A stretch of 64,000 bases of DNA, taken from assembly GCA_041662205.1 (NCBI GenBank), contig JBAZSZ010000002.1, forward strand, positions 103,266-167,265. The letters are read 5' to 3'. Numbering within the stretch: position 1 is the stretch's first letter; each line of letters opens with the position of its first letter. The notes beneath the pieces are model-generated. The model ran no database searches. It was not told the origin of the DNA and was given only the letters and a program-made list of their open reading frames with translations. Shown here piece by piece: positions 4,127 to 56,688 of this stretch. A program made the translations under genes and the position numbers. This DNA comes from Minisyncoccota bacterium. GTDB lineage: Bacteria; Patescibacteriota; Minisyncoccia; Phycocordibacterales; UBA9973.

Positions 4127-4961
4127 AAGCAAGAGAAATTAGTATTATCCAATCATTGAGCGATAAATCTTCTGCTCTTTTGTTTTCCAGAGATGCCAAA
4201 TCCTTGTTTTGGCAGACATTCTTTAAATTACCAGAGAGTTTTTTTCTTTTATGGGCGAAGCCTGCTTTTACTATTTCCCAAAATTTTTCTTCGTTTATTT
4301 TGTTTTTTATAAAAGTTTTCCTAGAAATATTTTTTATAGAGATAATAGCTGAATCAACTTTTGGTGCGGGAGAAAAATATCTAGCGGGTACCTTCATTAT
4401 TAATTTTGGATCTCCGTAAGCTTTGACTGAAATGGAAAGGATGCTCTCTTTTTGGTCACGAGCGATGATTCTTTTGGCTACTTCATGCTGGACCATCAGA
4501 ACCATAAGTTCTGGTTGATGCAAACCACCTAAAAATTTTTTTAGAATTGCGCCAGTGATATTGTAAGGAATGTTGGCGATTATCTTATAGCGAAGAGATC
4601 TTAAATTTTTAGAATGGTCTGGCCGGGATAGGGACCCGGAGAACCGAGGACTTGATAAAAATTTGAAAATCTCTTCGCTGATATTAAATTCTAAAATATC
4701 CTCATTTATTAAAATTAATTCCCCCCCAGCAATTTCTTTTTCAAACCTTTCTTTTAAAAATTCAAAAAGTTCTCGGTCTTTTTCTACTGCTATTACAGTT
4801 TCAGATTTTTCTAAAAGTTTTTTTGTGAGAGCTCCTTTCCCCGGCCCTATTTCTAAAATTACATCTCCCTTTTTTATTTCACCCGCTTCAATAATTTTTT
4901 TTAAAGCCAGTTCAGACTTTAAAAAATTTTGCCCTAGTGATTTTTTTGCTTTGTGTTGCAT
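4119..4961 (-). CDS. ksgA: 16S rRNA (adenine1518/1519-N6)-dimethyltransferase KsgA/RsmA, carrying an in-frame palindromic element insertion
   Basis: Motifs LGQNFL and EIGPGKGALT (SAM-binding) plus NIPYNIT. The inserted segment SSPRFSGSLSRPDHS is encoded by repeat copy A. Confidence 0.85.
   Translation of the reverse strand: MQHKAKKSLGQNFLKSELALKKIIEAGEIKKGDVILEIGPGKGALTKKLLEKSETVIAVEKDRELFEFLKERFEKEIAGGELILINEDILEFNISEEIFKFLSSPRFSGSLSRPDHSKNLRSLRYKIIANIPYNITGAILKKFLGGLHQPELMVLMVQHEVAKRIIARDQKESILSISVKAYGDPKLIMKVPARYFSPAPKVDSAIISIKNISRKTFIKNKINEEKFWEIVKAGFAHKRKKLSGNLKNVCQNKDLASLENKRAEDLSLNDWIILISLASK
4606..4660 (+). repeat. GC-rich palindromic element, copy A (core ~4614-4652) inside ksgA
   Basis: agaATGGTCTGGCCGGGATAGGGACCCGGAGAACCGAGGACttgataaaa. 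The central CCGGG-ata-ggga-CCCGG hairpin is flanked by the inverted repeats GGTCTGG/CCGAGGACC and by outer ttttnGA/TnAnAAAA arms. Confidence 0.8.
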
Positions 4962-9838: not shown

Positions 9839-9890
9839 AAGTATTTATATTATATATTTTTTAATTTTTAATACCAAATTTAGGTTAAAA

Positions 9891-9903
9891 TAGTTATCCA
9901 CAT
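9891..9903 (+). promoter_or_regulatory. Perfect DnaA-box-like motif TAGTTATCCACA upstream of a -35/-10 pair (LysM-M23 gene leader)
   Basis: TTATCCACA is the canonical DnaA box. The same extended 11-12-mer recurs at 12069-12078, 26966-26976, 42156-42167 and, in reverse orientation, at 37783-37794, each 25-40 nt upstream of a plausible -10 hexamer. Confidence 0.5.
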
Positions 9904-10170
9904 TAATTTACGATTAAATTGACTTTTGACCCTTTTTGAGCTATTTTAGGAGTATAGTTCTGAAGAGAGGTATGGGGCAAATTGACCGAATTCCAGAGAA
10001 GATAGTAACATCGTGAGAATCTTTTTCCACCGGTTGGTGGACACAGTACTGTGGTCGTCCTGTAATTCTAGCCTTATATTTAAAGGCTAGAAAAGGAAAT
10101 CTCGCGACATTTTGTTTGTTTTATAAAACCTAAATTCAAAATTCTAAAATCACTCGTATCCTTTTTCCTG

Positions 10171-11184
10171 TTGTTTGGGGTTCTTTTTGTGCCCTCACTA
10201 CCAGCTCAGGCAGACCTATTCTCTTCCCTCTCTTCTATCTTTGTCGGTGATCAAGCCTATGCGCTTCAGGCCAATGTTTCTTCTATTTCAATTTTAGAGG
10301 ATAAAAATAACAAAGATGGTGCAAAAGACAATATTATCGGTGGCATAAATACAAACACAGACAATATTTCTGACGATGATAAGGCACTTACCCCTAACGT
10401 TGGTTTAATGGGGGTATCAGATGGAAAAGACACTCAAGATTATTCTGAAGAAGATATTAGTGTTTACGTGGTAAGAAATGGTGATTCTATTTCCCAAATA
10501 GCTGATATGTTTGAAGTTTCGACTAATACAATTCTTTGGGCTAATGATATGAAAAAAGGTGATAAATTAGTAGAAGGAGATACTTTGATTATTTTACCAG
10601 TTTCTGGTGTAAAGCATACAGTTCTCAAGGGGCAAACTTTAAAAGGAATTGCTAATAAATACAAAGTAGATATTTCAGACATCGCTAGTTTTAACGGGAT
10701 AGCTATGGATTCAGATCTAGCTCTTGGAGATGAGCTTATTATCCCTGATGCTGAAATGGTTAACGTTGAAGCCCCTAAAAAACCAAAGACTAATTCAGTA
10801 AATAGTATAAAAACAACACTCAAAACTTTAGTAGGATACTTCATCAATCCTGTCCCAGGCTATAAGAGGGTAAGTCAGAAGTTACATGGTAATAATGGTG
10901 TTGATTTAGCTGCTCCAATTGGTACAAAAATTATTGCCGCTGCTTCTGGAACAGTGCTCTTGGCGCGTAATGGATATAATGGAGGTTATGGAAATATGGT
11001 TATTATTAAACACTCAAATGGAACTAAGACTTTATATGCTCACCAATCAAAAATAGCTACCAGTACAGGAGCTAAAGTGTCTCAAGGAGAAATCATTGGC
11101 TATGTAGGGTCCACTGGACGCTCAACCGGCCCTCACCTTCACTATGAAATTCATGGTGCTAGGAATAATACTTTAGATTTGTAA
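10171..11184 (+). CDS. LysM-domain M23-family peptidoglycan endopeptidase
   Basis: LysM segment YVVRNGDSISQIADMFEVSTNTILWAN...GDTLIILP. M23 signature HGNNGVDLAAP...GNMVIIKHSNGTKTLYAHQS...GSTGRSTGPHLHYEIH. The start is a TTG; no in-frame ATG lies upstream. Confidence 0.8.
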   Translation: MFGVLFVPSLPAQADLFSSLSSIFVGDQAYALQANVSSISILEDKNNKDGAKDNIIGGINTNTDNISDDDKALTPNVGLMGVSDGKDTQDYSEEDISVYVVRNGDSISQIADMFEVSTNTILWANDMKKGDKLVEGDTLIILPVSGVKHTVLKGQTLKGIANKYKVDISDIASFNGIAMDSDLALGDELIIPDAEMVNVEAPKKPKTNSVNSIKTTLKTLVGYFINPVPGYKRVSQKLHGNNGVDLAAPIGTKIIAAASGTVLLARNGYNGGYGNMVIIKHSNGTKTLYAHQSKIATSTGAKVSQGEIIGYVGSTGRSTGPHLHYEIHGARNNTLDL

Positions 11185-11218
11185 ATTTGCTCTAAAAAGC
11201 AAAACTACTTATTTGTTG

Positions 11219-11289
11219 TGCGGGATAGGCGAATCGAACGCCTGCCCAGAGTTTGGAAAACTCTTATTCTACCACTAAACTAATCCCGC
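11219..11289 (-). tRNA. tRNA-Gly (anticodon UCC)
   Basis: Manual fold of the reverse complement. Acceptor GCGGGAT/ATCCCGC, anticodon stem AGAGU/ACUCU with loop UUUCCAA, T-arm AGGCG-UUCGAUU-CGCCU. Confidence 0.75.
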
Positions 11290-11334
11290 TTTCGTTAAAG
11301 CTTCGGCGGGCGAGCCCGCTTAGGCTATAACTTG

Positions 11335-11405
11335 TCGGGCTGCTGGGAATCGAACCCAGTCTAAACGCTCCCAAAGCGCTTGTACTACCGGTATACTACA
11401 GCCCG
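11335..11405 (-). tRNA. tRNA-Pro (anticodon UGG)
   Basis: Manual fold. C1:G72 acceptor CGGGCUG/CAGCCCG typical of bacterial tRNA-Pro, anticodon loop UUUGGGA, T-arm CUGGG-UUCGAUU-CCCAG. Confidence 0.75.
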
Positions 11406-11452
11406 TTAAATTATCAAGCTACAAAAACACATAACTACGCTCATATAATATA

Positions 11453-11863
11453 TCACAAGATAATATCACTTACCACTTTTATTTTCGCTTTTTTGTTTTG
11501 TATATCAAGGAATACAATCAATAGATCCACTTGCCATCCTTTTTCATCAGGTATTTTTTCTGATAAAAGATAAGTTTGTATTGTTCGTGATAAACGTTTA
11601 AGTTTCCATGGGTGCATATTGTCTTCAGGCTTATAGTTATCTTTTGTTCCATGTGAAACATTTTTTAAGGTTTTATGTGCGACTGATTTTACTTCAATAA
11701 AGTGTAATTTATTGGTCTTTTCAGCTACAATATCTATTTCACCCCATTTTTTCGTATAATTTCTATTTAATATTAGAAAATTATGTTTCATGAGAAACCT
11801 TACAGCTATATTTTCTCCAATTTCTCCAGTTTTTTGGGTTTTTGAGGTAAATACTTTTGGCAT
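11453..11863 (-). CDS. yraN: YraN-family (UPF0102) predicted endonuclease
   Basis: 136 aa with the GEIDIVA core typical of UPF0102/YraN. Confidence 0.65.
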   Translation of the reverse strand: MPKVFTSKTQKTGEIGENIAVRFLMKHNFLILNRNYTKKWGEIDIVAEKTNKLHFIEVKSVAHKTLKNVSHGTKDNYKPEDNMHPWKLKRLSRTIQTYLLSEKIPDEKGWQVDLLIVFLDIQNKKAKIKVVSDIIL

Positions 11864-12132
11864 TTTATTTATTGTTTTAAAATAAAATCCTTATTTTAAA
11901 AACAAAAAAGCTGTTTCACGTTTAACATGTTTCACATGAAACATAGTAACAAATTTTTAGTAAATTTTATGTCTTTTACTATAATATCCTTATTTTATAA
12001 GATATATACAGAAAAAATGCTAATAAAAGACAGTTTCATATTGTGTCCTTTATGAACAGTACTAACATAGTTATCCACAATTTTATTAAATCTTTAATTT
12101 ATAAGGTATTATTAAGGGACATCATTTTTTTG

Positions 12133-12203
12133 TGCGGCCAGAGAGAATCGGACTCTCGTCTCATCCTTGGCAAGGACGTGTTCTACCACTGAACCATGAC
12201 CGC
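12133..12203 (-). tRNA. tRNA-Gly (anticodon GCC); the T-loop reads UCCGAUU rather than UUCGAUU
   Basis: Manual fold. Acceptor GCGGUCA/UGGCCGC with one U-G pair, D-stem GUUC/GAAC, anticodon loop UUGCCAA, T-stem GAGAG/CUCUC. Confidence 0.65.
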
Positions 12204-12275
12204 AAATTTATCTATGTATAAAGACCACCGAATATGACCGCAAACTACTTATGTATAAAAACCACCGAATATGAC
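12204..12275. repeat. Two tandem ~34-bp direct repeats, each carrying a pseudo-copy of the first ~17 nt of the adjacent tRNA-Gly(GCC)
   Basis: tatgtataaagaccaccgaatatgaccgcaaa occurs twice. On the minus strand it reads gcggtcatattcggtgg, against the tRNA 5' end gcggtcatggttcagtgg. Confidence 0.7.
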
Positions 12276-12418
12276 CGCAAATTATATTTTAAAAAACTAT
12301 AAACAATTATAATATTTAATTAGAACTAATGCAATTATTAAATTAACCAATTAAATAAAGCTTATTTGTGAGTATTTTAAAAATAATGTATAATATGTAG
12401 TATTATTATATTAATTAC

Positions 12419-12490
12419 GCACTCGTAGTGAAATGGATATCACAATAGTCTTCGGAACTATTATTGAGGGTTCGAATCCCCCCGAGTGCA
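12419..12490 (+). tRNA. tRNA-Arg (anticodon UCG)
   Basis: Acceptor GCACUCG/CGAGUGC, D-stem GUGA/UCAC, anticodon stem AUAGU/ACUAU with loop CUUCGGA, T-loop UUCGAAU. A TATAAT-like -10 lies about 30 nt upstream. Confidence 0.7.
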
Positions 12491-14105
12491 CAAAACAAAA
12501 GTGGAACAGGATGTTAAAAATTTAATATCAAAAACACCCAAAGAAGTTTCACATGTAACTAATACGCTCGAAAAAGATGGTTTTGAGGCATATCTAGTTG
12601 GCGGGTGCGTTAGAGATCTTTTGATGTCTAAGGAGCCAAATGACTGGGATATCACAACTAATGCTAAACCAGAGCAAATTATAAGTCTTTTTGAAAAGAC
12701 TGTTTATGAGAATGGCTTTGGTACAGTAGCTGTGGTTGTTCCGCGTGAAACACATCAAGAGGATGTTTCACATGGAACAAACCCTATTCCCTTGTCAGAA
12801 GAGAAAAATATGATTATAGAAGTTACTCCTTATAGAATTGAAGCAAAATATAGCGATTTTAGACATCCAGATGAGGTGAAATTTAGTGATAAGCTGGAGG
12901 ACGATCTTAAAAGACGTGACTTTACGGTTAATGCCATGGCCTTAAACAGTAAAGGACATCTGGTTGATTTTTTTGATGGTATAAAGGACATTAACGAAAA
13001 GACAATAAAGGCAGTAGGGAATCCAGATGATCGTTTTGCTGAAGATGCTCTCAGGATGTTGCGCGCTGTACGTCTTTCCTGCCAGCTTAATTTTTCTGTG
13101 GCTTATGAAACGATGCAAAGTATTTTGAAAAATTCAGAGTTGATAAAAAAAATTTCTGAAGAAAGAATTCGTGATGAGTTTGTAAAAATAATTATGTCGG
13201 AAAATTCCGCGAATGGAATCGTGATGTTACAAAAATTTAATTTGTTAAAAAATATAATTCCTGAACTAGAAGAGGGAATAGGCTGTGAACAATCCGGTGA
13301 GCATATTTACGACGTTTGGAATCATTTACTTCATGCATTAGAACATGCGACAAACAAGAATTGGTCTTTGGAAATAAGGCTCGCAGCGCTTTTCCATGAT
13401 ATTGGGAAGCCCCGAAGTAGGCGTATTGCGGAGCGAATTGATAATTTATCAGGTCCTCGGTCTTTCGGGTCCCTACCCCGGCCAGACCATGACAAATCAT
13501 CAATTCGCTCCGCAAAGAAAAAATTTACTTTTTACGGTCATGAAGTTGTCAGCACGCGGATGGCAAAAAAAATAATGGAGAGATTAAAATTTCCTAAAAA
13601 AGAAATTGAGTTAGTAGAAAAACTTGTTCGCAATCATATGTTTTTTTCTGACACAGAATTAATCACGCTGTCAGCCGTGCGAAGAATTATTGCAAAAGTT
13701 GGAAAAGAAAATATTTGGTTATTGATGAATGTCCGTGAGTGCGACAGGGTAGGGATGAAGAAAAAAGAAACCCCATATCGCCTTCGGAAGTATTTTGCCA
13801 TGATTGAGGAAGCCCTGAGAGATCCTATTTCTGTCGGACAGTTGAAAATCAACGGTGAATTTATGATAAAAGAGCTTGGAATCACTCCCGGACCACGCAT
13901 GGGGTGGATTTTACATGCATTACTCGAAGAAGTGCTAGATGCTCCGGAGAAAAACACGGTAGAACATCTGTCGGAGTTGGTAAAATCTTTAAATATGTTG
14001 GGGGATACAGAACTAAAAACTCTTGGTCTACGTGGAAAAGAAAAAAAAGAAGAATTAGAAGAAGAAGAGGTTGTGAAGCTTCACAAAAAGCATGGAGTGA
14101 AATAA
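12486..14105 (+). CDS. cca: CCA-adding tRNA nucleotidyltransferase with an HD domain, carrying an in-frame palindromic element insertion
   Basis: GGCVRDLL, RRDFTVNA, and the HD motif LFHDIGKP...FYGHE with about 26 extra residues (..NLSGPRSFGSLPRPDHD..) between GKP and FYGHE, encoded by repeat copy D. The start is a GTG at 12486 (overlaps the tRNA-Arg 3' end by 5 nt) or at 12501; there is no early in-frame ATG. Confidence 0.8.
   Translation: MHKTKVEQDVKNLISKTPKEVSHVTNTLEKDGFEAYLVGGCVRDLLMSKEPNDWDITTNAKPEQIISLFEKTVYENGFGTVAVVVPRETHQEDVSHGTNPIPLSEEKNMIIEVTPYRIEAKYSDFRHPDEVKFSDKLEDDLKRRDFTVNAMALNSKGHLVDFFDGIKDINEKTIKAVGNPDDRFAEDALRMLRAVRLSCQLNFSVAYETMQSILKNSELIKKISEERIRDEFVKIIMSENSANGIVMLQKFNLLKNIIPELEEGIGCEQSGEHIYDVWNHLLHALEHATNKNWSLEIRLAALFHDIGKPRSRRIAERIDNLSGPRSFGSLPRPDHDKSSIRSAKKKFTFYGHEVVSTRMAKKIMERLKFPKKEIELVEKLVRNHMFFSDTELITLSAVRRIIAKVGKENIWLLMNVRECDRVGMKKKETPYRLRKYFAMIEEALRDPISVGQLKINGEFMIKELGITPGPRMGWILHALLEEVLDAPEKNTVEHLSELVKSLNMLGDTELKTLGLRGKEKKEELEEEEVVKLHKKHGVK
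13443..13499 (-). repeat. Palindromic element copy D (reverse orientation) inside cca
   Basis: aggtcctcggtctttcgggtccctaccccggccagaccatgac. The variant central hairpin ttcggg/ccccgg contains one G-U-type mismatch. Confidence 0.75.
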
Positions 14106-19831: not shown

Positions 19832-19838
19832 AGGAAGG

Positions 19839-19970
19839 TTTTTAAAATTCTTTCTTGGCATACTTTTTATAAAGCAATCTATCTGGCGAAGCTTCGCCAG
19901 CGAACTGCTCGGCTCGTCAGCCTGCGCAAGGCTTTCTAAAAAATACGCCTGCAACAAATTTTAAAAATCT
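19839..19970. repeat. Structured GC-rich intergenic element, family T1, copy 1 (downstream of rpsO)
   Basis: tttttataaagcAATCTATCTGGCGAAGCTTCGCCAGCGAACTGCTCGGCTCGTCAGCCTGCGCAAGgctttctaaaaaa, with outer AT-rich inverted arms. It ends at the TATAAT of the NYN gene. Confidence 0.7.
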
Positions 19971-22791: not shown

Positions 22792-22818
22792 AATTCTTTA
22801 TTTTATAAACTTTTCTTT

Positions 22819-22888
22819 GGTACGGATTTTTTGAAGCTTAAAAAATCCTGAAGTTCTCGGCTCGTCAGCCTCGAAACCCCGCGAAAAG
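22819..22888 (+). repeat. Structured intergenic element, family T2, copy 1 (downstream of pnp)
   Basis: GGTACGGATTTTTTgaagcttAAAAAATCCTGAAGTTCTCGGCTCGTCAGCCTCGAAACCCC. It shares the CTCGGCTCGTCAGCC core with T1. Confidence 0.7.
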
Positions 22889-24902: not shown

Positions 24903-24955
24903 TTTCCCCCACCCCAGGGATAGGGGAAATCCCCTATCCCTGGGGTGGGGGAAAC
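24903..24955. repeat. Perfect 53-bp palindrome (25-bp arms, 3-nt spacer) between divergent metK and the dksA-like gene
   Basis: TTTCCCCCACCCCAGGGATAGGGGA-aat-TCCCCTATCCCTGGGGTGGGGGAAA. GC-rich in an AT-rich genome. Its GGGATAGGG centre resembles the core of the in-frame element family. Confidence 0.85.
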
Positions 24956-25349: not shown

Positions 25350-26966
25350 ATGAGTTTTGCCAAAGTTTATTCAGCGCAAGTTAATTTACTCAAGGGTTCT
25401 ATCGTGACTATTGAAGTAGATCTCTCAAAAGGGCTCCACTCTTTTAGCTTGGTTGGTTTGCCGGACAAAGCGGTGGATGAATCCAAAGATAGAGTAAGCG
25501 GAGCCATAAAAAATTCTGGCTTTAAATCTCCCAAAGCAAAAAATCAAAAGATAATAGTTTCGCTTTCACCGGCTGATTTGAAAAAGGAGGGCCCTTTTTT
25601 TGATTTAGGAATTGCTTTGTCTTATATGCTAGCGGCGGGTGACGTGAAATTTGATTCAGAGAAAAAGATTTTTTTAGGAGAGCTGGGGCTCGATGGAACT
25701 TTGCGGAAAATCCGTGGGGCCTTACCACTTGCGCAAGAAGCTAAAAGACTTGGTTTTGAAGAAATATATTTACCAAAAGAAAATGCAGTCGAGGCGGCGT
25801 TAGTGGAAGGCATAAAAATTTTTGGAGCAAATAGTTTGCAGGAAGTGGTGAGGCATCTAAGCCCCAATGAGGCCAGCAAAATTTTTTCGGGTCCTCGGTC
25901 TGAAGCCAGACCAGCTCAAAAATCTTCTAGCCTCATTGAGGCTGGAGGATTAATTAATATTCAGCCGCAAACAAAAATAAATTATAAAAAAGAAATATCA
26001 CGGATTGATTTTTCAGATATTCGTGGGCAAGAGGGAGCCAAGCGAGGTTTGGAAATTGCGGCAGCTGGCGGACACAATATCGCCATGTATGGCCCACCGG
26101 GCACAGGTAAGACGATGCTTGCTCGGGCATTTTCTCAACTACTACCAGATTTAGATCTTGATGAGGTTTTAGAAATTACAGGCATTCACTCAGTAGCAGG
26201 AAATACAAATGGAGAGTTAGTTTGTTTTCCTCCATTTCGTTCCCCGCATCATACTTCGTCCTATGTTTCTATTATCGGTGGAGGGACATATCCAAAGCCC
26301 GGAGAAGTGACGCTCGCACATCGCGGAGTTTTATTTTTAGATGAATTTCCAGAATTTGAAAAAAGAGTGATCGAATCTCTGCGCCAGCCACTCGAAGACA
26401 ACATTGTTTCAATTTCGCGCGCCAAAGGAAATGCTTGTTTTCCTTCAAATTTTATTTTAGTCGCGGCGATGAATCCTTGTCCTTGTGGGAACGCGACTTC
26501 GAAACAAAAAGCATGCATTTGCAAACCGTCCGACTTAGATAGATATAAAAGAAAATTGTCTGGACCGATTGTGGATCGTATCGATCTCTGGGTTTCTGTC
26601 GGTAACGTTGATTATAAAAAATTAGGAGGCGATGGGGATGGCGAGAAAAGTGAAAAGATAAAAGAAAGAATAATCAAAGCGCGAGAAAACCAAAAAAATA
26701 GATTTAAAAAATTTGAGAAAGATATTAAGAAAAAAATCACAACTAATAGTGAGATGAATGTAAAAGATCTAGGTATGATGGTGCCACTCGGTGGCAAAGT
26801 GAGAGACTTGCTCGATGATAGTGCAGAACGTTTGAGCTTGTCTGCTCGCGCCTATCATCGGATAATTAAAATAGCATGCACGATAGCAGACTTGGAAAAT
26901 TCTCCTGAGGTAGAAGAGCATCATATTTTAGAAGCGATACAATATCGACCGAAAGTTAATAACTAG
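25350..26966 (+). CDS. comM: YifB/ComM-family Mg-chelatase-like AAA+ ATPase, carrying an internally deleted copy of the palindromic element in its linker
   Basis: N-terminal Lon-like domain, Walker A GPPGTGKT, Walker B VLFLDEF, and a C-terminal Mg-chelatase region. The linker SGPRSEARPAQ is encoded by repeat copy E. Confidence 0.8.
   Translation: MSFAKVYSAQVNLLKGSIVTIEVDLSKGLHSFSLVGLPDKAVDESKDRVSGAIKNSGFKSPKAKNQKIIVSLSPADLKKEGPFFDLGIALSYMLAAGDVKFDSEKKIFLGELGLDGTLRKIRGALPLAQEAKRLGFEEIYLPKENAVEAALVEGIKIFGANSLQEVVRHLSPNEASKIFSGPRSEARPAQKSSSLIEAGGLINIQPQTKINYKKEISRIDFSDIRGQEGAKRGLEIAAAGGHNIAMYGPPGTGKTMLARAFSQLLPDLDLDEVLEITGIHSVAGNTNGELVCFPPFRSPHHTSSYVSIIGGGTYPKPGEVTLAHRGVLFLDEFPEFEKRVIESLRQPLEDNIVSISRAKGNACFPSNFILVAAMNPCPCGNATSKQKACICKPSDLDRYKRKLSGPIVDRIDLWVSVGNVDYKKLGGDGDGEKSEKIKERIIKARENQKNRFKKFEKDIKKKITTNSEMNVKDLGMMVPLGGKVRDLLDDSAERLSLSARAYHRIIKIACTIADLENSPEVEEHHILEAIQYRPKVNN
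25884..25913 (-). repeat. Internally deleted palindromic element copy E inside comM
   Basis: ttttcgGGTCCTCGGTCTgaagCCAGACCAgct. Both termini are retained and the central palindrome is replaced by gaag. Confidence 0.6.
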
Positions 26967-28313: not shown

Positions 28314-28385
28314 GTACAGATTTTTCAATAAAAGATTAGACTTAAAAAATCCTGAAGTTTGCTCGCCGTCGCTCGCAAAACCCCC
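28314..28385 (+). repeat. Family T2, degenerate copy 3 (downstream of rny, upstream of hup)
   Basis: GGTACAGATTTTTcaataaaagattagacttAAAAAATCCTGAAGTTTGCTCGCCGTCGCTCGCAAAACCCCC. Confidence 0.55.
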
Positions 28386-28410
28386 TAAAAAAATTGTATT
28401 TAAAAGATTT

Positions 28411-32515: not shown

Positions 32516-33322
32516 ATGATTATCGACAAATACAACAAAAGAGCCAAGAAAATAAATTCACTTTTATGCGTTGGTCTGGATACGGATTTTGCAAAAATTC
32601 CAAAAAGATTTTTGAAAAAGAAATTTCCGCAATTTGAATTTAATAAATGGATTATCGAAGAGACCCACGAATATGCCGCTGCTTATAAACCCAATAGCGC
32701 TTTTTATGAAGCTAGGGGTGATAAAGGAATACGAGAATTAAAAATGACGATGGATTATCTGATAAAAAATCATCCAGATATTTTTACGATTCTTGACGCC
32801 AAGAGGGGGGACATAGGAAATACGAATAATGGTTACGTTGCTTCTATTTTCGATTGGTTTGGCTTTGACGCTTTCACTGTGTATCCATATTTAGGACAGG
32901 AAGCAGTGCAACCGATTTTAGATAGAAAAGATAAAGGAGTGATTTTGCTTTGCCGTACTTCAAATCCTGGAGCAAAAGATTTTCAAGATTTAAAGATTAA
33001 TGGAAAACCACTTTGGCAGATTGTGGCAGAGAAAGTTTCTAAAGAGTGGAATAAGAATAAAAATTGTATGCTCGTCGTCGGGGCGACTTATCCTAAAGAG
33101 ATGAAAAAAATTCGCTCTATTGTGGGGGATATGACTTTTCTAGCTCCAGGCGTGGGTGCTCAAGGTGGGGAATTAAAAGAAATGCTAAAAGCTGGATTAA
33201 ACAGTAAAGGTTTAGGCTTAATAATAAATTCTTCTAGGGGTATAATTTTTTCCAATAATCCAAAAATTGAAGCCAAAAAACTACAAGACGAGATTAGGAA
33301 ACACAAGCAGGAAATTAATTAA
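32516..33322 (+). CDS. pyrF: Orotidine-5'-phosphate decarboxylase (type 2)
   Basis: LCVGLDTD and ILDAKRGDIGNT. Confidence 0.8.
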   Translation: MIIDKYNKRAKKINSLLCVGLDTDFAKIPKRFLKKKFPQFEFNKWIIEETHEYAAAYKPNSAFYEARGDKGIRELKMTMDYLIKNHPDIFTILDAKRGDIGNTNNGYVASIFDWFGFDAFTVYPYLGQEAVQPILDRKDKGVILLCRTSNPGAKDFQDLKINGKPLWQIVAEKVSKEWNKNKNCMLVVGATYPKEMKKIRSIVGDMTFLAPGVGAQGGELKEMLKAGLNSKGLGLIINSSRGIIFSNNPKIEAKKLQDEIRKHKQEIN

Positions 33323-33333
33323 AAAAGAAAATA

Positions 33334-33445
33334 ACTAAAATAGGAAAATATCAAAATTTATAAAGCAATCTATCTGGTGTTGCTACACCAGCGAACTGCT
33401 CGGCCCGTCGGCCTGCGCAAGGCTTTCTAAATTTTTTATTTTCCT
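33334..33445. repeat. Family T1, copy 2 (downstream of pyrF), flanked by a perfect 18-bp inverted repeat
   Basis: aactaaaataggaaaata...ataaagcAATCTATCTGGTGTTGCTACACCAGCGAACTGCTCGGCCCGTCGGCCTGCGCAAGgctttctaaa...tattttcctattttagtt. Compensatory substitutions relative to copy 1 in both internal hairpins. Confidence 0.75.
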
Positions 33446-33631
33446 ATTTTAGTTTTCCACTTTTTCCACTTTTATCTAGGCTTGCTTCTGTGTGTAGAAA
33501 TGTTACTATCATTTTTAATGTATCAACAGAGATTAAAAGAGAAAAAGTCTGGGGAAAAGTTTGCCACTTCTATCTTTTTAAGCTCCATTATCAATATTTT
33601 ATTTTAAAACCCCTTTTGGGGTTATTTTTTT

Positions 33632-37248: not shown

Positions 37249-37602
37249 TTAAGCGGATGTTACCTGTCGGAGTCCTGTTCCATCGTCGCTTGTTTTCCTT
37301 ATTGCCGCTACAGGCTGTAATCCCTTGCCGTCATCCTGGCCCATTGCCTTTGTAGTTGCGATAGTCCAGCCGTCTTCTTTTGCGAGGTCCTGCTGCCCTG
37401 TTGCCTTCATAAGAATACCCTGATCCACGGTAACGGCGTCGGTGATAGTTGCGCCTTCTTCTTTTGCGAGGTCCTGCTGCCCTGTTGCCTTCATAAGAAT
37501 ACCCTGATCCACGGTAACGGCGTCGGTGGCTGCGAACGCGATAGCGGCGCACAGTACTGTAAAACAACAGCATAGCACTACCAATAAAAGTTTCTTCTTC
37601 AT
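37249..37602 (-). CDS. Small secreted protein with two 28-aa tandem repeats and atypically high GC
   Basis: Signal peptide MKKKLLLVVLCCCFTVLCAAIAFA, a strong AGGAGGG Shine-Dalgarno sequence, repeats (A)TDAVTVDQGILMKATGQQDLAKE(E/D)G, and local GC of about 55-59% against about 35% nearby. Confidence 0.6.
   Translation of the reverse strand: MKKKLLLVVLCCCFTVLCAAIAFAATDAVTVDQGILMKATGQQDLAKEEGATITDAVTVDQGILMKATGQQDLAKEDGWTIATTKAMGQDDGKGLQPVAAIRKTSDDGTGLRQVTSA
37374..37541. repeat. 84-bp tandem direct repeat x2 inside the 37249-37602 gene
   Basis: cttcttttgcgaggtcctgctgccctgttgccttcataagaataccctgatccacggtaacggcgtcggtg occurs twice with a period of 84 bp. Confidence 0.8.
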
Positions 37603-39212: not shown

Positions 39213-40079
39213 TTATTGACTGTCGCTTCCTGAATTATTAGAATTATCTAATTTCAATTTATCTAATTCTATTTTTACTTCGTCTTTTAAAGATTTAACT
39301 GCATCTCTAAGTGCTTGATGAGCATCTTTAATAAGATTTTGAGTATCTTGTGCAAGAGTTACTAATTTAGCTTTTTCTGTTGCAGAAAGTTTATTAACTG
39401 AGGTTGCTAGAATTGTGTTTATTTCTGTAATTTTTACATTAGCAGTATTTAGTTTTGTTTCAGCTGTTGTTACAAAAGCTTTAGCGTTCGTAACATTTAC
39501 TCCCTTCAATGCTAGTTTGGCTATTTGATTGTTAATTCTATCTTTTAAATTATTCATTCTTGCAACTGCCGCATCAAATCTCTGTAATGCATTTTCTCTT
39601 CCAGAAATTCTTGTCTCGCCATCTAATTTTTTGGCTAAATTTTTTTCTCCTTTAAGGATAGATTTTAAATCCTCTAGTTTATTTTTTGCTACTTCACGTA
39701 GTGCCCTGTTTGCATCATCACCACTATCAGATGAATTGTCGATACGCACTCCAGCTGCATTAAAATCTCCTCTACCTTGGTCTGGGGTCCCATCATCATC
39801 ACCAGGAGTATTGTCTATGCGTACTCCAGCTGCATTAAAATCTCCTCTACCTTGGTCTGGGGTCCCATCATCACCAGGAGTATTATCTACACGTACTCCG
39901 GCAGCGTTGAAATCACCAGAACCTTGGTCAGGAGTTCCATCATCACTACCACCTCCACTACTACTAACGCCACTGGAAGAATTACCAGAACTTCCATCTT
40001 TTGCTTGAGAGTTATTTGCATTCATCATAAACACTAGCATTAAAACAATCACAAACAAACCTATATTTTTTTTCATCAT
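39213..40079 (-). CDS. Secreted protein with three tandem 22-23-aa RGD-containing repeats and a C-terminal coiled coil
   Basis: Signal peptide MMKKNIGLFVIVLMLVFMMNANNSQA. Repeats GDDGTPDQG(R/S)GDFNAAGVR(I/V)DNTP x3. The DNA repeat period is 66-69 bp over about 39740-39950. Confidence 0.6.
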   Translation of the reverse strand: MMKKNIGLFVIVLMLVFMMNANNSQAKDGSSGNSSSGVSSSGGGSDDGTPDQGSGDFNAAGVRVDNTPGDDGTPDQGRGDFNAAGVRIDNTPGDDDGTPDQGRGDFNAAGVRIDNSSDSGDDANRALREVAKNKLEDLKSILKGEKNLAKKLDGETRISGRENALQRFDAAVARMNNLKDRINNQIAKLALKGVNVTNAKAFVTTAETKLNTANVKITEINTILATSVNKLSATEKAKLVTLAQDTQNLIKDAHQALRDAVKSLKDEVKIELDKLKLDNSNNSGSDSQ

Positions 40080-46605: not shown

Positions 46606-46683
46606 GCTTCTTCCAATTTTTCTTCGGCTCATCCTTCTCGGAGTACCGAGCGGGACCCTACCGAAAGAAAAATTGGAAGAAGC
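46606..46683. repeat. Compound GC-containing palindrome between pilB and pilC
   Basis: cttcttccaatttttcttCGG...CTCGGagtaCCGAG...CCGaagaaaaattggaagaag. An 18-bp outer inverted repeat encloses an inner palindrome. The right arm overlaps the possible TTG start of pilC. Confidence 0.6.
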
Positions 46684-52419: not shown

Positions 52420-52795
52420 TTTTTTTGGCAGCTTCTACTGATTCATTATCTTTATATGTTTTTATTGGAAACATAGGTAGAGCATCTTTTAAATATCTTG
52501 GAATTAGGTGAACGTGGAAATGCGGGACGTCTTTGCCTACGACTGATAACTGTACATAATCGCACCCAATTCCTTTTTTAACGGCTAGTATTAATTTTTT
52601 TGCTAATGTAAAAATTTCTGAAATGATTCCATCATCTGCGTCTTGTATCCAGACAATATGCTTTTTAGGAATTATTAAAAGGTGTCCATCGGAAACTGGC
52701 TGGATGTCTAAAAACACCAAAAAATCTTGGTTTTCATGGATTTTTGTGCAAGGGATTTCTCCTTTGACTATTTTACAAAAAATGCAGTTTTCCAT
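52403..52795 (-). CDS. HIT-family (histidine triad) hydrolase
   Basis: CIFCKI zinc-binding region and HFHVHLIP histidine triad. Confidence 0.75.
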   Translation of the reverse strand: MENCIFCKIVKGEIPCTKIHENQDFLVFLDIQPVSDGHLLIIPKKHIVWIQDADDGIISEIFTLAKKLILAVKKGIGCDYVQLSVVGKDVPHFHVHLIPRYLKDALPMFPIKTYKDNESVEAAKKIIEAL

Positions 52796-52812
52796 AGAAA
52801 GTTTTATAAAAT

Positions 52813-52875
52813 AAAGTTTTGGAATGGTCTGGCTGGGATAGGGACCCAGAGAACCGAGGACCTGAGAAAACTTTG
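52813..52875 (+). repeat. Palindromic element copy F, intergenic (HIT gene / recJ), with compensatory stem changes
   Basis: aaagttttggaATGGTCTGGCTGGGATAGGGACCCAGAGAACCGAGGACCtgagaaaacttt. The stem CTGGG/CCCAG replaces CCGGG/CCCGG, a double compensatory change. The outer arms aaagtttt/aaaacttt extend the palindrome to about 63 bp. Confidence 0.8.
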
Positions 52876-52895
52876 ATTTTATAAAACTTTCTATA

Positions 52896-54578
52896 TTGTA
52901 TGCTAAAATTCAATTTATGCAAAGATACGGAGAATTATTGCGAACACTTTTGGAAAAAAGGGGAATTGTTGATGAAAAACAAGCGGAAATTTTTCTAAAT
53001 CCAAATTATGAACGTGATTTTCATGACCCATTTTTAATGCGAGATATGGAAAAAGCTTGTGTGCGTTTATATGAAGCAATAGAAAATAAAGAAAAAATAA
53101 TTATTTACGCAGATTATGATTGCGATGGGATACCTGGGGCAGTTATCTTGACTGATTTGTTTCTATTATTGGGATATAAAAATTTTGAAATTTATATTCC
53201 TCAAAGAAATTCGGAGGGCTACGGACTAAATCTTGAAGCGATAAAACAATTTTCAAAATCTAATGTGAAACTTTTAATTACGGTGGATCTTGGCATTACT
53301 GCAATAAAGGAAGTAGCGCAAGCAGAAGTCGATGGTATAGACGTAATAATAATGGATCACCATTTGCCAAAAGAAACTCTACCTCGTGCTTATGCAATTT
53401 TAAATCCAAAGGTGGATGAATATCCGGAAAAAATGCTTTGTGGGGCGGGAGTTGTTTTTAAATTTGTGCAGGGGTTTATTCAAAAATATAGTAAATATTT
53501 TGACATTAAAGATGGTAGTGAGAAATGGATGCTAGATATGGCGGGATTAGCGACGCTTTCTGATATGGTTCAGCTTACGGGTGAGAATAGAGCTATGGCA
53601 TATTTTGGAATGAAAGTGCTAAAGAAGACTCCTCGTCCAGGATTACAAAAACTTTTAGCAAAAATGAAGATTGAACAGAAATATTTATCTTCTGACGATG
53701 TTGGTTTTATGGTAACACCTAGATTAAATGCCGCCTCAAGGATGGACGATCCGATGCGAGCTTATGAACTTCTTGCCACGAGAGATGAGTCGGAAGCGGA
53801 TGTACTTTCAAATCACTTATCAAAAATAAATGATGAAAGAAAAAATATCGTGAAGGGTATTATGCGTGATGTAAATAAACATATAGATAAAAAATTAGAA
53901 AGTGGAAAAGGGTCTGACGTGATAGTGATAGGTAATCCAGAATGGAAGGTAGGAGTACTGGGACTTATCGCGGGGAAAATATCAGATAAATATAAAAAAT
54001 CTGTTTTTGTATGGGCGAAAGATGAAAATGATTGTATTAAGGGTTCTTGTCGGAGCGATGGATCTGTTTCTGTGGTGGAGCTGATGAGTGAAAACAGTGA
54101 ATCATTTGTGGATTTTGGCGGGCACGAGCTGGCAGGAGGGTTTACTGTTTACGATGATAAAATTCATTTTTTAGAAGAAGCGCTTTCTCTTTCTTTTCAC
54201 AAAGTAAAAAGAGAAAAAAAAGAATATATTGTAGATTATGATATTAAATCTGATTTAGGCATCGTGAATATTAAAAATTGGAAGGAAATAGAAAAAATGA
54301 CACCTTTTGGAATAGGAAATCCTAAACCAGTTTTTTTCTTTTCTGACGTTAAGATAGAAAAAATAAAAAAATTTGGCAAAAATGGATCCGGAGAACATCT
54401 AGAAATTATTTTTTCTGATTCTTCTGGTAAAGTTACAGCAATTTCTTTTTTTTCTGATTGTGATTCTTTTGACGTACCTCTTGTAGAAGATAAAACAGTC
54501 AATCTATTGGCTACATTTGATCTATCTAGATTTAGAGGGAGAGTTGAGTTAAGATTGAGAATAGAGAATATATTATAA
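52896..54578 (+). CDS. recJ: Single-stranded-DNA-specific exonuclease RecJ
   Basis: DHH motifs IIYADYDCDGIPGA and IIMDHH, and the DHHA1 region GGHELAGG. Confidence 0.85.
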   Translation: MYAKIQFMQRYGELLRTLLEKRGIVDEKQAEIFLNPNYERDFHDPFLMRDMEKACVRLYEAIENKEKIIIYADYDCDGIPGAVILTDLFLLLGYKNFEIYIPQRNSEGYGLNLEAIKQFSKSNVKLLITVDLGITAIKEVAQAEVDGIDVIIMDHHLPKETLPRAYAILNPKVDEYPEKMLCGAGVVFKFVQGFIQKYSKYFDIKDGSEKWMLDMAGLATLSDMVQLTGENRAMAYFGMKVLKKTPRPGLQKLLAKMKIEQKYLSSDDVGFMVTPRLNAASRMDDPMRAYELLATRDESEADVLSNHLSKINDERKNIVKGIMRDVNKHIDKKLESGKGSDVIVIGNPEWKVGVLGLIAGKISDKYKKSVFVWAKDENDCIKGSCRSDGSVSVVELMSENSESFVDFGGHELAGGFTVYDDKIHFLEEALSLSFHKVKREKKEYIVDYDIKSDLGIVNIKNWKEIEKMTPFGIGNPKPVFFFSDVKIEKIKKFGKNGSGEHLEIIFSDSSGKVTAISFFSDCDSFDVPLVEDKTVNLLATFDLSRFRGRVELRLRIENIL

Positions 54579-55082: not shown

Positions 55083-56591
55083 ATGCGAGATAGAATTTTT
55101 TATACAATTTGTTTTGGTTTTTTATTTGGAGTGCTGACGCGCTCTTTTATTTTGGTAGATTTATATTTGGTTATTTTGTTTAGTGTGATTGCTGGTGCAT
55201 TGTTTATATTTTTTACATTAGTCTCAAAAAGTGATTGGACCTGTCTGCGCAGGCAGGGAATTATAGTTTCTATTTTTATTTTGGCTTTTAGTTTAGGTGT
55301 TTACAGATTTAATATGGTGGATGTGCCGAATTCTCTTGTTTTTGAAAATCAAGTGGGACAAGAAGTAACTTTTTCTGGAGAAATTACAGACGAGCCTAGT
55401 ATAAAAGAGAATAACCAGCAATTGATAGTAAAAATAAAAAAAGAAAAAGATAAAACACATATTTTATTAACCACTAATTTAGATATAGATTATAAATATG
55501 GAGATGAGATAAATTTTTTTGGCGAATTAGAAAAGCCGGGAAATTTTATTACTGATCAGGGAAAAGAATTTGACTATATAAATTATTTACGGAAAGATGG
55601 GATTTTGTATGTGATGAGTTATCCAACAATTTCCATTGTTTCGCGCGGGAATGGTAACTCAATTCAAAGCATCTTATTTTCTATTAAAGATAAGTTTTTG
55701 GAGAAAATAAATTTTGCTATTAATGCCCCTGAGAATCTTCTTATGGGCGGGCTTATTTTGGGCGAAAAATCTTCTTTTAGCCAGGAGCTGAGACAGAATT
55801 TTGTGGATACTGGTACGATACACATCGTTGCTCTTTCTGGATACAATGTGACAATTGTGGCTGAATGGATTATGAAATTATTCTCTTATGTAAATTTTGG
55901 CTTGCCTGCACAGGCAGGTATTGGAATGGGAATATTAACAATAATTTTATTCATTATAATGACTGGTGGAATTTCGACCGCTATTCGGGCGGGGATAATG
56001 GCGACTTTGGCATTAGTGGCCCGCGCGACTGGGCGCAACTATGATGTCGCGCGAGCTTTATTATTGGCTGGGTTGTTTATGATAATTCTTAATCCTTTTC
56101 TTCTTGTTTTTGATGCTTCTTTTCAACTTTCTTTTTTGGCGACAGCCGCTGTGATATTTATTGCTCCTAGAATTGAAAAATATTTTCTATGGGTACCGAA
56201 AACTTTTGAGTTACGAGATATAGTATCAGTCACTTGCGCTGCTTATATTTTTGTTTTTCCTTTTATTCTTTATAAAATGGGTAATTTTTCACTCGTAGCC
56301 TTACCAGCTAATATTTTAATTTTGCCCTTTATTCCTCTTACGATGATGTTTGGGTTTGTTACTGGTTTTCTTGGACTTGTTTATTATGTATTGGCAGTGC
56401 CTGTGGGTTATCTTTCTTATTTATTTTTACATTATGAGCTCGGAGTAATAAGTTTTTTTGCTGATCTACCTTTTGCGTCTTTTACTTTTCCAGATTTTCC
56501 ACTTTTGCTAACAGTTTTAATATACATCTATTTTATTTATAAACTTTTTGGCAGAAATATAATAAGTTTTTTTAGAGAAAATCAAGAATAA
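55083..56591 (+). CDS. comEC: ComEC/Rec2-family competence channel protein (DUF4131 + Competence domain only; no MBL domain)
   Basis: Polytopic membrane protein with the Competence-domain motif GTIHIVALSGYNVTIVA. Confidence 0.7.
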   Translation: MRDRIFYTICFGFLFGVLTRSFILVDLYLVILFSVIAGALFIFFTLVSKSDWTCLRRQGIIVSIFILAFSLGVYRFNMVDVPNSLVFENQVGQEVTFSGEITDEPSIKENNQQLIVKIKKEKDKTHILLTTNLDIDYKYGDEINFFGELEKPGNFITDQGKEFDYINYLRKDGILYVMSYPTISIVSRGNGNSIQSILFSIKDKFLEKINFAINAPENLLMGGLILGEKSSFSQELRQNFVDTGTIHIVALSGYNVTIVAEWIMKLFSYVNFGLPAQAGIGMGILTIILFIIMTGGISTAIRAGIMATLALVARATGRNYDVARALLLAGLFMIILNPFLLVFDASFQLSFLATAAVIFIAPRIEKYFLWVPKTFELRDIVSVTCAAYIFVFPFILYKMGNFSLVALPANILILPFIPLTMMFGFVTGFLGLVYYVLAVPVGYLSYLFLHYELGVISFFADLPFASFTFPDFPLLLTVLIYIYFIYKLFGRNIISFFRENQE

Positions 56592-56600
56592 TGTTTTTAA

Positions 56601-56662
56601 GGGGTTTCGAGGCTGTCGAGCCGAGAATTTCAGGATTTTTCAAGCTTCGAAAAATTTGTACC
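56601..56662 (-). repeat. Family T2, copy 2 (reverse orientation) between the convergent comEC and sodA genes
   Basis: The reverse complement reads GGTACAAATTTTTCGAAGCTTGAAAAATCCTGAAATTCTCGGCTCGACAGCCTCGAAACCCC. Confidence 0.7.
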
Positions 56663-56688
56663 GGCAAAAATATTACTCTTGATTTTCT

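Follow-up and report, generated by a model that had tools for sequence, protein, structure and literature searches.

A hairpin between HIT-family and recJ-like genes of a Minisyncoccota bacterium as a probable intergenic copy of a protein-coding palindromic repeat family

Results and Discussion

The stretch of DNA analysed here, hereafter the window, comprises 64,000 nucleotides of a Minisyncoccota bacterium (GenBank assembly GCA_041662205.1, contig JBAZSZ010000002.1, positions 103,266 to 167,265, forward strand) and carries a long hairpin in the spacer between a HIT-family gene and a recJ-like gene. The hairpin belongs to a dispersed, non-autonomous family of palindromic repeats in Paceibacteria/Nomurabacteria of the candidate phyla radiation (CPR), to which we give the name F1. 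F1 is probably a protein-coding palindromic repeat resembling the Rickettsia palindromic elements (RPEs), and the hairpin between HIT and recJ, the focal copy, is then one of its intergenic members. As would be expected of an RPE-like element, F1 is present in many copies, forms a long stem-loop, is inserted in frame in genes and is absent from the same genes in some related genomes.

The hairpin between HIT and recJ

The focal copy and the two genes that it separates are as follows.

52794..52894, plus strand: focal F1 copy, full 101-nt palindrome in the HIT-recJ spacer; RNAfold pairs 52794 with 52894
52794..52825, plus strand: left arm, HIT side, 32 nt, ATAGAAAGTTTTATAAAATAAAGTTTTGGAAT; 28 Watson-Crick pairs in the arm alignment
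52826..52862, plus strand: GC-rich 37-nt apex, GGTCTGGCTGGGATAGGGACCCAGAGAACCGAGGACC (alignment A2, 75 copies)
52833..52837, plus strand: 5' side of the central stem, CTGGG, with the variant base T52834
52845..52849, plus strand: 3' side of the central stem, CCCAG, with the compensating base A52848
52863..52894, plus strand: right arm, recJ side, 32 nt, TGAGAAAACTTTGATTTTATAAAACTTTCTAT, with a one-base bulge at G52875
52403..52795, minus strand: HIT-family gene (Pfam HIT; P0121 100% identical); its start codon, CAT 52793-52795, adjoins the left arm
52918..54578, plus strand: recJ-like gene, a DHH/DHHA1/RecJ_OB neighbour; ATG 52918 (MQRYGE...) is the start kept in relatives

The palindrome fills nearly all of the spacer that separates the start codons of HIT and recJ, its recJ-side end lying 23 nt ahead of the recJ ATG. 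The opening two bases of the left arm are the complement of the AT in the HIT ATG. On the other side, the mechanical open reading frame (ORF) of recJ starts at TTG 52896, and relatives share a conserved ...ctttgcat start. The first-pass annotation had placed the copy between the HIT start and recJ, which is where it sits (HIT CAT 52793-52795 on the minus strand, recJ ATG 52918), and had correctly read a CTGGG...CCCAG stem at 52813-52875 (52833-52837/52845-52849). The palindrome was there estimated at about 63 bp, but the outer flanks pair as well in RNA folding and the actual extent is 101 nt, 52794-52894. The apex can be parsed as GGTCTGG-CTGGG-ATAGGGA-CCCAG-AGAA-CC-GA-GGACC, in a genome of about 35% G+C, and the 7-nt loop ATAGGGA separates CTGGG from CCCAG. 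Both strands fold into stable structures, with -40 kcal/mol for the plus strand (z = -6.2, RNAfold) and -38.6 kcal/mol for the minus strand (z = -7.7), and 0/200 shuffles were as stable in either case. With covariance model R1 the focal copy scores 85.2 bits.

The position of the palindrome raises the question of whether it is a local regulator of HIT and recJ, be it as an operator or promoter region that the two have in common, as a terminator or insulator acting in both directions, as a cis-regulatory RNA or as a small RNA gene. It does occupy the divergent promoter region, TATAAA lies in each arm 8-10 nt from the adjacent gene end, and in locus L046 the arms are almost identical while the adjoining HIT coding sequence differs more. 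However, TATAAA is not retained in L051 or L165, relatives have a 36-39-nt spacer with a TATAAT box of its own, L046 and L051 carry the element in inverted orientation with respect to both genes, and F1 also occurs within ORFs elsewhere. Intrinsic terminator prediction returned none at the focal element, which has no T-tract and separates two gene starts, and the one promoter-like match nearby is weak (minus strand, 52923-52895). At gathering thresholds Rfam identified solely four tRNAs in the whole window, all away from the element, and ARAGORN likewise four tRNAs in the whole window, none at the element. With permissive E-values, the best Rfam match in 52760-52930 was an unrelated miRNA hairpin at 20.7 bits vs a threshold of 94, so that no Rfam family comes near threshold. 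For hammerhead and twister ribozyme cores no convincing match was seen by eye, Rfam being the one formal test. A local regulatory role is thus very unlikely, and we infer no dedicated function for HIT or recJ from the focal copy.

F1 is a dispersed family

With 5 occurrences in the window vs 0.25 expected, the core motif is there more often than chance would give, and the covariance model revealed a sixth, decayed copy in addition to the five intact ones. A DNA-pattern scan of one genome per GTDB species gave 78 loci, from which a set of 75 copies was obtained, with chance matches in high-GC genomes excluded and the five window copies counted in. Nearly all of the sources are metagenome-assembled genomes of Nomurabacteria, Paceibacterota or other Patescibacteria, with several copies per contig. 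A metagenome scan using KsgA yielded mostly distant, empty homologues and few extra F1 copies. The core pattern had 0 matches in 2.9 million viral contigs, and phage were ruled out as the F1 vector on that count.

Alignment of the five intact window copies shows a common core of about 40 nt, the flanks being unlike each other but self-complementary in each copy. The conserved F1 unit is about 56-59 nt long and consists of C-TTTTT-nGAAT, the 37-nt GC-rich apex and CTGAn-AAAAA-G; together with site-specific outer arms it makes up a full hairpin of 78-103 nt. From the inside outward, the 37-nt apex is followed by a bulge of a single base, by inner arms that bear T5 (left) and A5 (right), and by outer arms of 20-33 nt. 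This polarity of the T5 and A5 tracts holds in 74/75 copies. The outer arms pair in every copy, and the outer 14 columns on each side of alignment A2 have no consensus.

Copies inside genes are in frame

About half of the F1 copies are intragenic. In the window, these are the following.

4592..4676, plus strand: F1 in KsgA/RsmA (ORF 4119-4961, minus strand), in frame, antisense; encodes FKFLSSPRFSGSLSRPDHSKNL; 83 bits
5848..5931, minus strand: F1 in a UvrD/PcrA-like helicase (ORF 4966-7047, minus strand), site 2, in frame, sense; encodes AFENGLAGIGTRGTENLSKS; 77 bits
6719..6806, plus strand: F1 in the same UvrD gene (4966-7047), site 1, in frame, antisense; encodes AFSEVLGSPGPYPGQTIQKS; 97.8 bits
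13426..13515, minus strand: F1 in the CCA-adding enzyme (ORF 12486-14105, plus strand), in frame, antisense; encodes NLSGPRSFGSLPRPDHDKS; 84.8 bits
25860..25943, minus strand: decayed short-form F1 in a ComM/Mg-chelatase-like gene (ORF 25350-26966, plus strand), in frame; encodes KIFSGPRSEARPAQKSS

The ComM copy, whose host gene was assigned from ORF and Pfam, has lost the central stem-loop and matches model R1 at 25866-25937 with 37.2 bits (E = 4e-7), its arms being 81% complementary. Outside the window, further hosts are TsaD, TGT, SMC, MnmA, UvrC, a class-V aminotransferase (cysteine desulfurase-like) and a DUF4147/MOFRL protein (glycerate kinase-like).

A copy was counted as genic when an open frame of at least 200 nt abutted it on both sides. 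This gave 49 copies, 37 well inside a gene and 12 at gene ends. All of the internal copies (37/37) are in frame and free of stops, while frames are open across the element in 28% for intergenic copies. Given these in-frame, stop-free copies, the inserts are presumably translated. The predicted peptides include SGPRFSGSLSRPDHSK across a junction and FFSGPRFSGSLSRPDHSKNL running through an insert. Four different reading frames/orientations are used, giving peptides such as SGPRFSGSLSRPDH, QVLGSPGPYPGQTI, NGLAGIGTRRTEDL and WSGRDRDPENRGP; since several frames and orientations are in use, the conservation resides in the nucleic acid and not in the peptide. AlphaFold models the insert of the window KsgA with low confidence, as a loop with a predicted local distance difference test score (pLDDT) below 50 at residues 104-121 that lies between confident strands at 82-85 and 125-130.

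The frame conservation bears on a different idea, namely that the inserts are removed or skipped in RNA, by intron-like excision or by ribosomal bypassing as with the byp elements of Magnusiomyces mitochondria, and that the hairpin is selected in mRNA. Elements of the removed or bypassed kind are known in AT-rich mitochondrial genomes, and a long stable hairpin would draw the insertion boundaries together. Removal or bypassing needs no open frame, and therefore the 37/37 internal copies that are in frame and stop-free, vs about 28-44% of frames open by chance, count against it. So do the use of either orientation at the same site and the mismatches on the mRNA strand, which are more often the disruptive A.C (31) than G.U (16). 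An intron or bypass was ruled out on the ground of frame conservation, and we regard this explanation as highly improbable.

The gene for the CCA-adding enzyme carries two palindromic inserts, as a separate 45-nt palindrome, TTGTTCCGCGTGAAACA…TGTTTCACATGGAACAA, lies in frame at 12736-12780 and encodes …VVPRETHQEDVSHGTN…. In locus L064 (about 4990-5050, minus strand), the F1 copy in the same gene has a nested 30-nt palindrome, GTTGAAATCTG…CAGATTTCAAC, in its apex, which takes the place of the AGAACCG segment.

Empty alleles, decay and inversion of the apex

Insert-free alleles were found in close relatives at three sites, KsgA, UvrD site 2 and the HIT-recJ spacer. Among the 120 closest homologues of KsgA, about 22 are without insert, 36 have F1 antisense, 12 have F1 sense and about 10 have an unrelated family (ERTLGRSDGDGQRKFSAENFRGESEN); others have short or decayed cores (SGPRKKSPDHE, SGYPASQRHHS). 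Neither KsgA nor UvrD site 2 is filled in the close relative L079, the UvrD of which is about 90% identical. Relatives preserve the recJ/HIT/pgk gene order around the focal copy. There the HIT-recJ spacer is empty in L161, L163 and L164, with a length of 36-39 nt, and filled in the window (122 nt), in L165 (120 nt) and in L162 (106 nt, short-form core). The filled alleles retain the 22 nt that adjoin recJ. Diverged or short-form cores are seen in L080, in L162 and at 25866 in the window.

Between genomes, the apex is inverted relative to its flanks at five sites. One is the HIT-recJ spacer, in which the window and L165 differ from L046, L051 and L162; the others are KsgA, the CCA-adding enzyme, UvrD site 2 and the L008/L016 site. 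Repeated insertion of the core into a pre-existing hairpin was considered, but the orientation is mostly constant per site, which favours vertical inheritance of apex and arms. In KsgA the arms of the window and of L031 are unrelated although the flanks are about 86% identical, and whole alleles, for example at KsgA, may be replaced through inter-strain recombination.

In the empty alleles L161, L163 and L164 (positions 865-900), a TATAAT box precedes the HIT ATG by just 7-8 nt, and at a similar distance from the recJ ATG there is a TAAAAT box (empty alleles; window 52880-52895). This arrangement suggests that transcripts in these CPR genomes have no leader or a very short one.

The unrelated insert in KsgA, family B (peptide ERTLGRSDGDGQRKFSAENFRGESEN; its 20-nt arms are perfect in L080), sits in the very loop that F1 uses in about 10 homologues, including P0063, P0081, P0072 and P0053. 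The KsgA gene of L080 has two elements in tandem, family B and a diverged F1 lying side by side (L080:920-1957). At UvrD site 2 in L031 and L066, family B comes after F1. The KsgA and UvrD loops are insertion hot spots or uniquely permissive sites.

Part of the stem is copied from the host

UvrD site 2 allows the outer arms to be compared with the DNA that was there before. The empty allele reads GAC TCC GCC GGA CAA GAT GTT GCC (D SAGQ DVA). These native codons make up the outer arm on the gene-upstream side of filled alleles, with identity over TCC GCC GGA of 9/9 in L031, 8/9 in L066 and 7/9 in L023. The gene-downstream outer arm is added DNA that complements the upstream arm, at 11/12 positions in L031, 10/12 in L023 and 10/12 in L010; in the window, the downstream arm complements the upstream arm at 5/6 plus one wobble. 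The net insertion is shorter than the palindrome, 69-78 nt vs 78-96 nt. The native upstream arm, the complementary added arm and the short net insertion together indicate a stem that is partly host-templated at this site, and the comparison of alleles puts the templated part at the outermost 6-12 bp at least. The simplest process would be intrastrand template switching at the hairpin, according to the quasipalindrome model.

Elsewhere, too, the palindrome exceeds the net insertion, with about 72 nt inserted vs a palindrome of 89-93 nt in KsgA and about 85 nt vs 101 nt in the focal spacer. For the focal site the lengths are consistent with host templating, and the palindrome takes in the AT of the HIT ATG. 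In the filled and empty alleles of UvrD site 2, KsgA and HIT-recJ no clear direct repeat was seen, and an inverted copy of the flank was found instead.

The filled UvrD site 2 of L023 is a full F1 copy on a contig of 58% G+C (JACPNO010000035.1) binned as 'Candidatus Solibacter usitatus'. Its UvrD is colinear with Paceibacteria genes and its F1 arms are GC-richer to match. The contig is either mis-binned or from a higher-GC CPR lineage.

Covariation and the T:A allele

Covariation was computed on a gap-free 84-column alignment of the 75 copies with 35 pairs. Standard pairs occupy 87% of cells vs 68% in shuffles, changes on both sides are seen in 22/35 pairs, and the covariation score is 0.458 vs 0.130 shuffled, falling to 0.20 or less when partners are slid by one to three columns. 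At UvrD site 1, nine pairs change on both sides among ten species, a number that 0/500 shuffles match. The expectation of covariation among copies was thus borne out, and an alignment with no excess over chance, which would have spoken against it, was not what we obtained. These data strongly support the hairpin as a maintained feature.

The first-pass annotation had taken CTGGG/CCCAG for a double compensatory mutation in the focal copy. The pair concerned is T52834:A52848, with C and G at the same positions in the other intact window copies; the stem is CCGGG/CCCGG in most members of the family. In the corresponding column pair (33-47), C:G is found in 50 of the 75 copies and T:A in 23, with T:G only in L029 and C:A only in L047. 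The T:A state is also present in the orthologous copy L051, and not in L046 or L165. Both alleles occur at six or more orthologous sites, and a single orthologous site holds C:G (L008), T:G (L029) and T:A (L016). With both alleles at at least six orthologous sites, T:A is not a double mutation that arose in the focal copy. We infer instead a recurrent allele of the family, probably exchanged between copies; ectopic conversion between copies could shift both paired bases together.

It had also been concluded from the covariation that the hairpin is under selection. The maintenance of the hairpin is well founded in the 75-copy covariation, but selection is not implied, since an arm copied from the host, as at UvrD site 2, shows that arm pairing can come about by templated copying without selection. 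The covariation in the F1 palindrome therefore stems at least partly from templated copying and is not proof of selection. A post-transcriptional RNA role in the host transcript, which had been offered as one possibility, is not favoured, with the apex flipping at five sites and G.T enriched on the plus strand of the element. An RNA hairpin selected in the host mRNA was ruled out by these flips and by the mRNA strand itself, where G.U is rarer than A.C (16 vs 31).

Proposed mode of spread and the evidence against it

In the manner of RPEs, F1 has entered spacers between genes as well as conserved housekeeping genes, probably at surface loops that tolerate it; orthologous sites have passed it on by inheritance, and it has decayed in part of the lineages. 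Template switching in the hairpin would lengthen the palindrome and re-copy changes from arm to arm, and recombination between the arms would invert the apex in place. The near-invariant apex would then reflect either recognition by a conserved factor or continuing homogenisation among copies.

Conservation is concentrated in the apex. At orthologous sites the mean pairwise identity is 92-97% for the apex, about 62-82% for flanking coding DNA and 43-63% for the outer arms, the apex value being partly a matter of ascertainment, since the search pattern itself prescribed 18 apex positions. Conservation nonetheless reaches at least 90% in the T5/A5 tracts and in CCGAGGACC, a segment that the pattern left free. 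In KsgA proteins chosen independently of the core, the intact core peptide is present in 48/120. The U29:G57 pair is invariant in the 75 copies.

A number of observations weigh against an RPE-like repeat as the full account of F1. A decaying selfish element alone does not explain the conservation of the apex. Mismatches in the arms are strand-asymmetric, with G.T 52 vs A.C 20 on the plus strand of the element (p = 2e-4), and G.T 36 vs A.C 17 (p = 0.013) when related copies are collapsed. The plus strand is antisense to the host gene in 37/49 genic copies and antisense to the flanking genes in 15/20 spacers between tandem genes. Together, the G.T excess and the antisense bias, which holds for about 75% of copies, point to a strand-specific constraint. 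The expected deamination biases would predict the opposite of this asymmetry. The pattern suggests either that the plus strand must fold or that a stable mRNA hairpin is disfavoured. Further, we found no transposase, target-site duplication or conserved terminal inverted repeat, although the window ORFs were not scanned for transposases, and the mobility of F1 accordingly rests on its distribution and the empty sites alone. Translation of the inserts is deduced from frame conservation. Finally, the HIT-side arm of the focal copy has no significant similarity to the native 16 nt of the empty alleles (best 215/3000 shuffles, p ~0.07), and we do not claim this arm as native DNA.

Several of these points would be accommodated by the main rival, in which F1 is a host-level signal. 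Here a strand-specific hairpin, formed in single-stranded DNA or in a transcript of its own, would present its apex to a conserved host protein that binds it, in a process such as replication, recombination, DNA uptake or RNA processing; the apex would be under purifying selection, the stem would need only to pair, and genic copies would be tolerated. The apex is near-invariant across many species while arms and flanks diverge, the T5/A5 polarity is fixed in all copies but one, U29:G57 does not vary, and the G.T excess on the plus strand has been noted above. The orientation is biased, 37 vs 12 in genes and 15 vs 5 between tandem genes, and the viral contigs hold no match. Against such a signal stand the empty alleles in close relatives at three sites, the decayed or deleted cores in many lineages, the other, unrelated families at the same KsgA site and the inversion of the apex at orthologous sites. 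The invariance of the apex is moreover inflated by the exact-pattern search, the cores of L080 and L162 being diverged or short, and no candidate binding protein was identified. We therefore consider a host-level signal rather unlikely, and prefer the RPE-like repeat.

Comparison with known systems

RPEs are hairpin repeats of 105-150 bp that are found in spacers and in frame in conserved genes, where they are translated and tolerated (PMC2229807, PMC10969869). By these descriptions F1 is alike in being a dispersed repeat with a long stem-loop of about 100 nt in spacers and, in frame, in housekeeping genes. F1 and RPEs further share small host-dependent genomes, inheritance at orthologous sites and decay in some lineages, and F1 is probably tolerated, as RPEs are, in the form of extra surface peptides. 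There are also differences. F1 is shorter (78-103 nt vs 105-150 nt) and is conserved at its GC-rich apex with variable termini, whereas RPEs are described with conserved 12-bp terminal inverted repeats. Unlike RPEs, F1 has outer arms that vary from site to site and that at UvrD site 2 derive in part from the host. F1 also differs in using both orientations and four reading frames and in its phylum; given the different phylum and base composition, sequence homology between F1 and RPEs is not expected. The families RPE-1 to RPE-10 were reportedly described by Ogata et al. in 2000 and 2002. Wolbachia carries similar protein-coding palindromes.

The bacterial MITEs (miniature transposable elements with inverted repeats; Correia/NEMIS, ERIC, RUP, BOX) resemble F1 as small, non-autonomous elements with long-hairpin transcripts and, in some cases, in-frame gene fusions. 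MITEs have conserved terminal inverted repeats and a target-site duplication, often TA, whereas the termini of F1 differ at every site. A test for terminal inverted repeats gave no consensus in the outer 14 columns of F1, the outer arms being only 43-63% identical even among orthologues.

The REP/BIME elements and REPINs, which RAYT (Y1 HUH) transposases mobilise, and the related IS200/IS605-derived PATEs are hairpins that are recognised as folded single strands. In such REP-type systems a strand-specific tolerance of G.T is expected, and terminal inverted repeats or target duplications are not needed. However, REPs are extragenic, have a conserved stem with a GTAG motif and go with a RAYT or TnpA gene, whereas about half of F1 is intragenic and its stems vary; examined for the extragenic location and conserved stem of REP/REPIN, F1 showed neither. 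In its usual orientation, the G.T-tolerant strand of F1 is on the template strand of the gene, contrary to the lagging-strand-template rule of IS200/IS605 if genes follow replication.

Quasipalindrome template-switch mutagenesis (the Ripley model) is an established process that makes point-mutation hotspots in E. coli and phage. It accounts for arm-to-arm copying and hence for perfect pairing, apparent compensatory changes and outward growth of the palindrome, as at UvrD site 2, where native codons are complemented by the inserted arm. It cannot account for the conservation of the unpaired apex of F1, and we know of no dispersed repeat family for which it is the maintenance mechanism. The GC clusters of yeast mitochondria and the byp elements are GC-rich palindromic mobile inserts in a very AT-rich genome, also in protein-coding genes. 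Both are organellar, and the byps are bypassed by the ribosome and require no frame, whereas F1 always keeps frame. A comparison with integron attC sites was negative, the base of the F1 stem being variable and its apex conserved, with no cassette context in the window.

The searchable literature, which leaves most subscription journals outside its coverage, yielded no account of elements of this kind in CPR. It is possible, if doubtful, that F1 and the sister families of like build in this genome are mobile hairpins of a kind not described before. A GC-rich unit of about 56-59 nt would then spread through AT-rich CPR genomes, needing neither terminal repeats nor target duplications; it would build and keep its long stem by inverted copying of adjacent host DNA, and its apex would be held constant through recognition by a conserved factor on one specific strand. 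If so, essential CPR genes would carry a strand-specific DNA or RNA signal within their coding sequence.

Protein-coding palindromes have so far been treated as a peculiarity of Rickettsia and Wolbachia, and a widespread, multi-family equivalent in CPR would show that small, AT-rich, host-dependent genomes have acquired them repeatedly. The 20-30 extra residues in KsgA, UvrD, the CCA-adding enzyme, TsaD and SMC affect the annotation, alignments and structure models of CPR proteins. The alleles of UvrD site 2 offer a natural case of a palindrome stem copied out of host DNA, and they call for caution in the discovery of RNA structure, as strong covariation in a DNA palindrome is by itself no proof of selection on an RNA fold. 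The conserved apex provides a concrete sequence with which to seek a binding or mobilising factor in bacteria that so far cannot be cultured by themselves.

Other repeats and features of the window

Further palindromic repeats are present in the window. At 46606-46683, in the spacer that separates a PilB/GspE-like ATPase gene from a PilC-like gene, lies an element of like build with perfect 19-nt arms (GCTTCTTCCAATTTTTCTT / AAGAAAAATTGGAAGAAGC) and a different 40-nt GC-rich core. Two intergenic copies at 19836-19970 and 33322-33465 are 91% identical and share the GC-rich core …CTGGCGAAGCTTCGCCAGCGAACTGCTCGGCTCGTCAGCCTGCGCAAGGC…, each with its own copy-specific flanking inverted repeats of 37-40 nt. 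A third repeat family with the core …GTTCTCGGCTCGTCAGCCTCGAAACCCC… is found at gene boundaries (22806-22887, 28341-28395 and, inverted, 56590-56675). A perfect GC-rich palindrome with 25-nt arms and a 2-nt loop (TTTCCCCCACCCCAGGGATAGGGGA / TCCCCTATCCCTGGGGTGGGGGAAA) is situated at 24903-24954, just upstream of the start of a MetK-like gene and overlapping the start of the next ORF.

Tandem direct repeats occupy 39716-39937, with three copies of 75 nt of which two match the first at 87% and 67% identity, and 37360-37527, with two copies of 84 nt (95% identical); both are probably within coding sequence. In the region of about 8000-13000, the GC skew changes sign and the coding strand switches from minus to plus at about 10-12 kb, beside the cluster of four tRNAs. 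This change may mark a replication origin or merely be a gene-strand effect.

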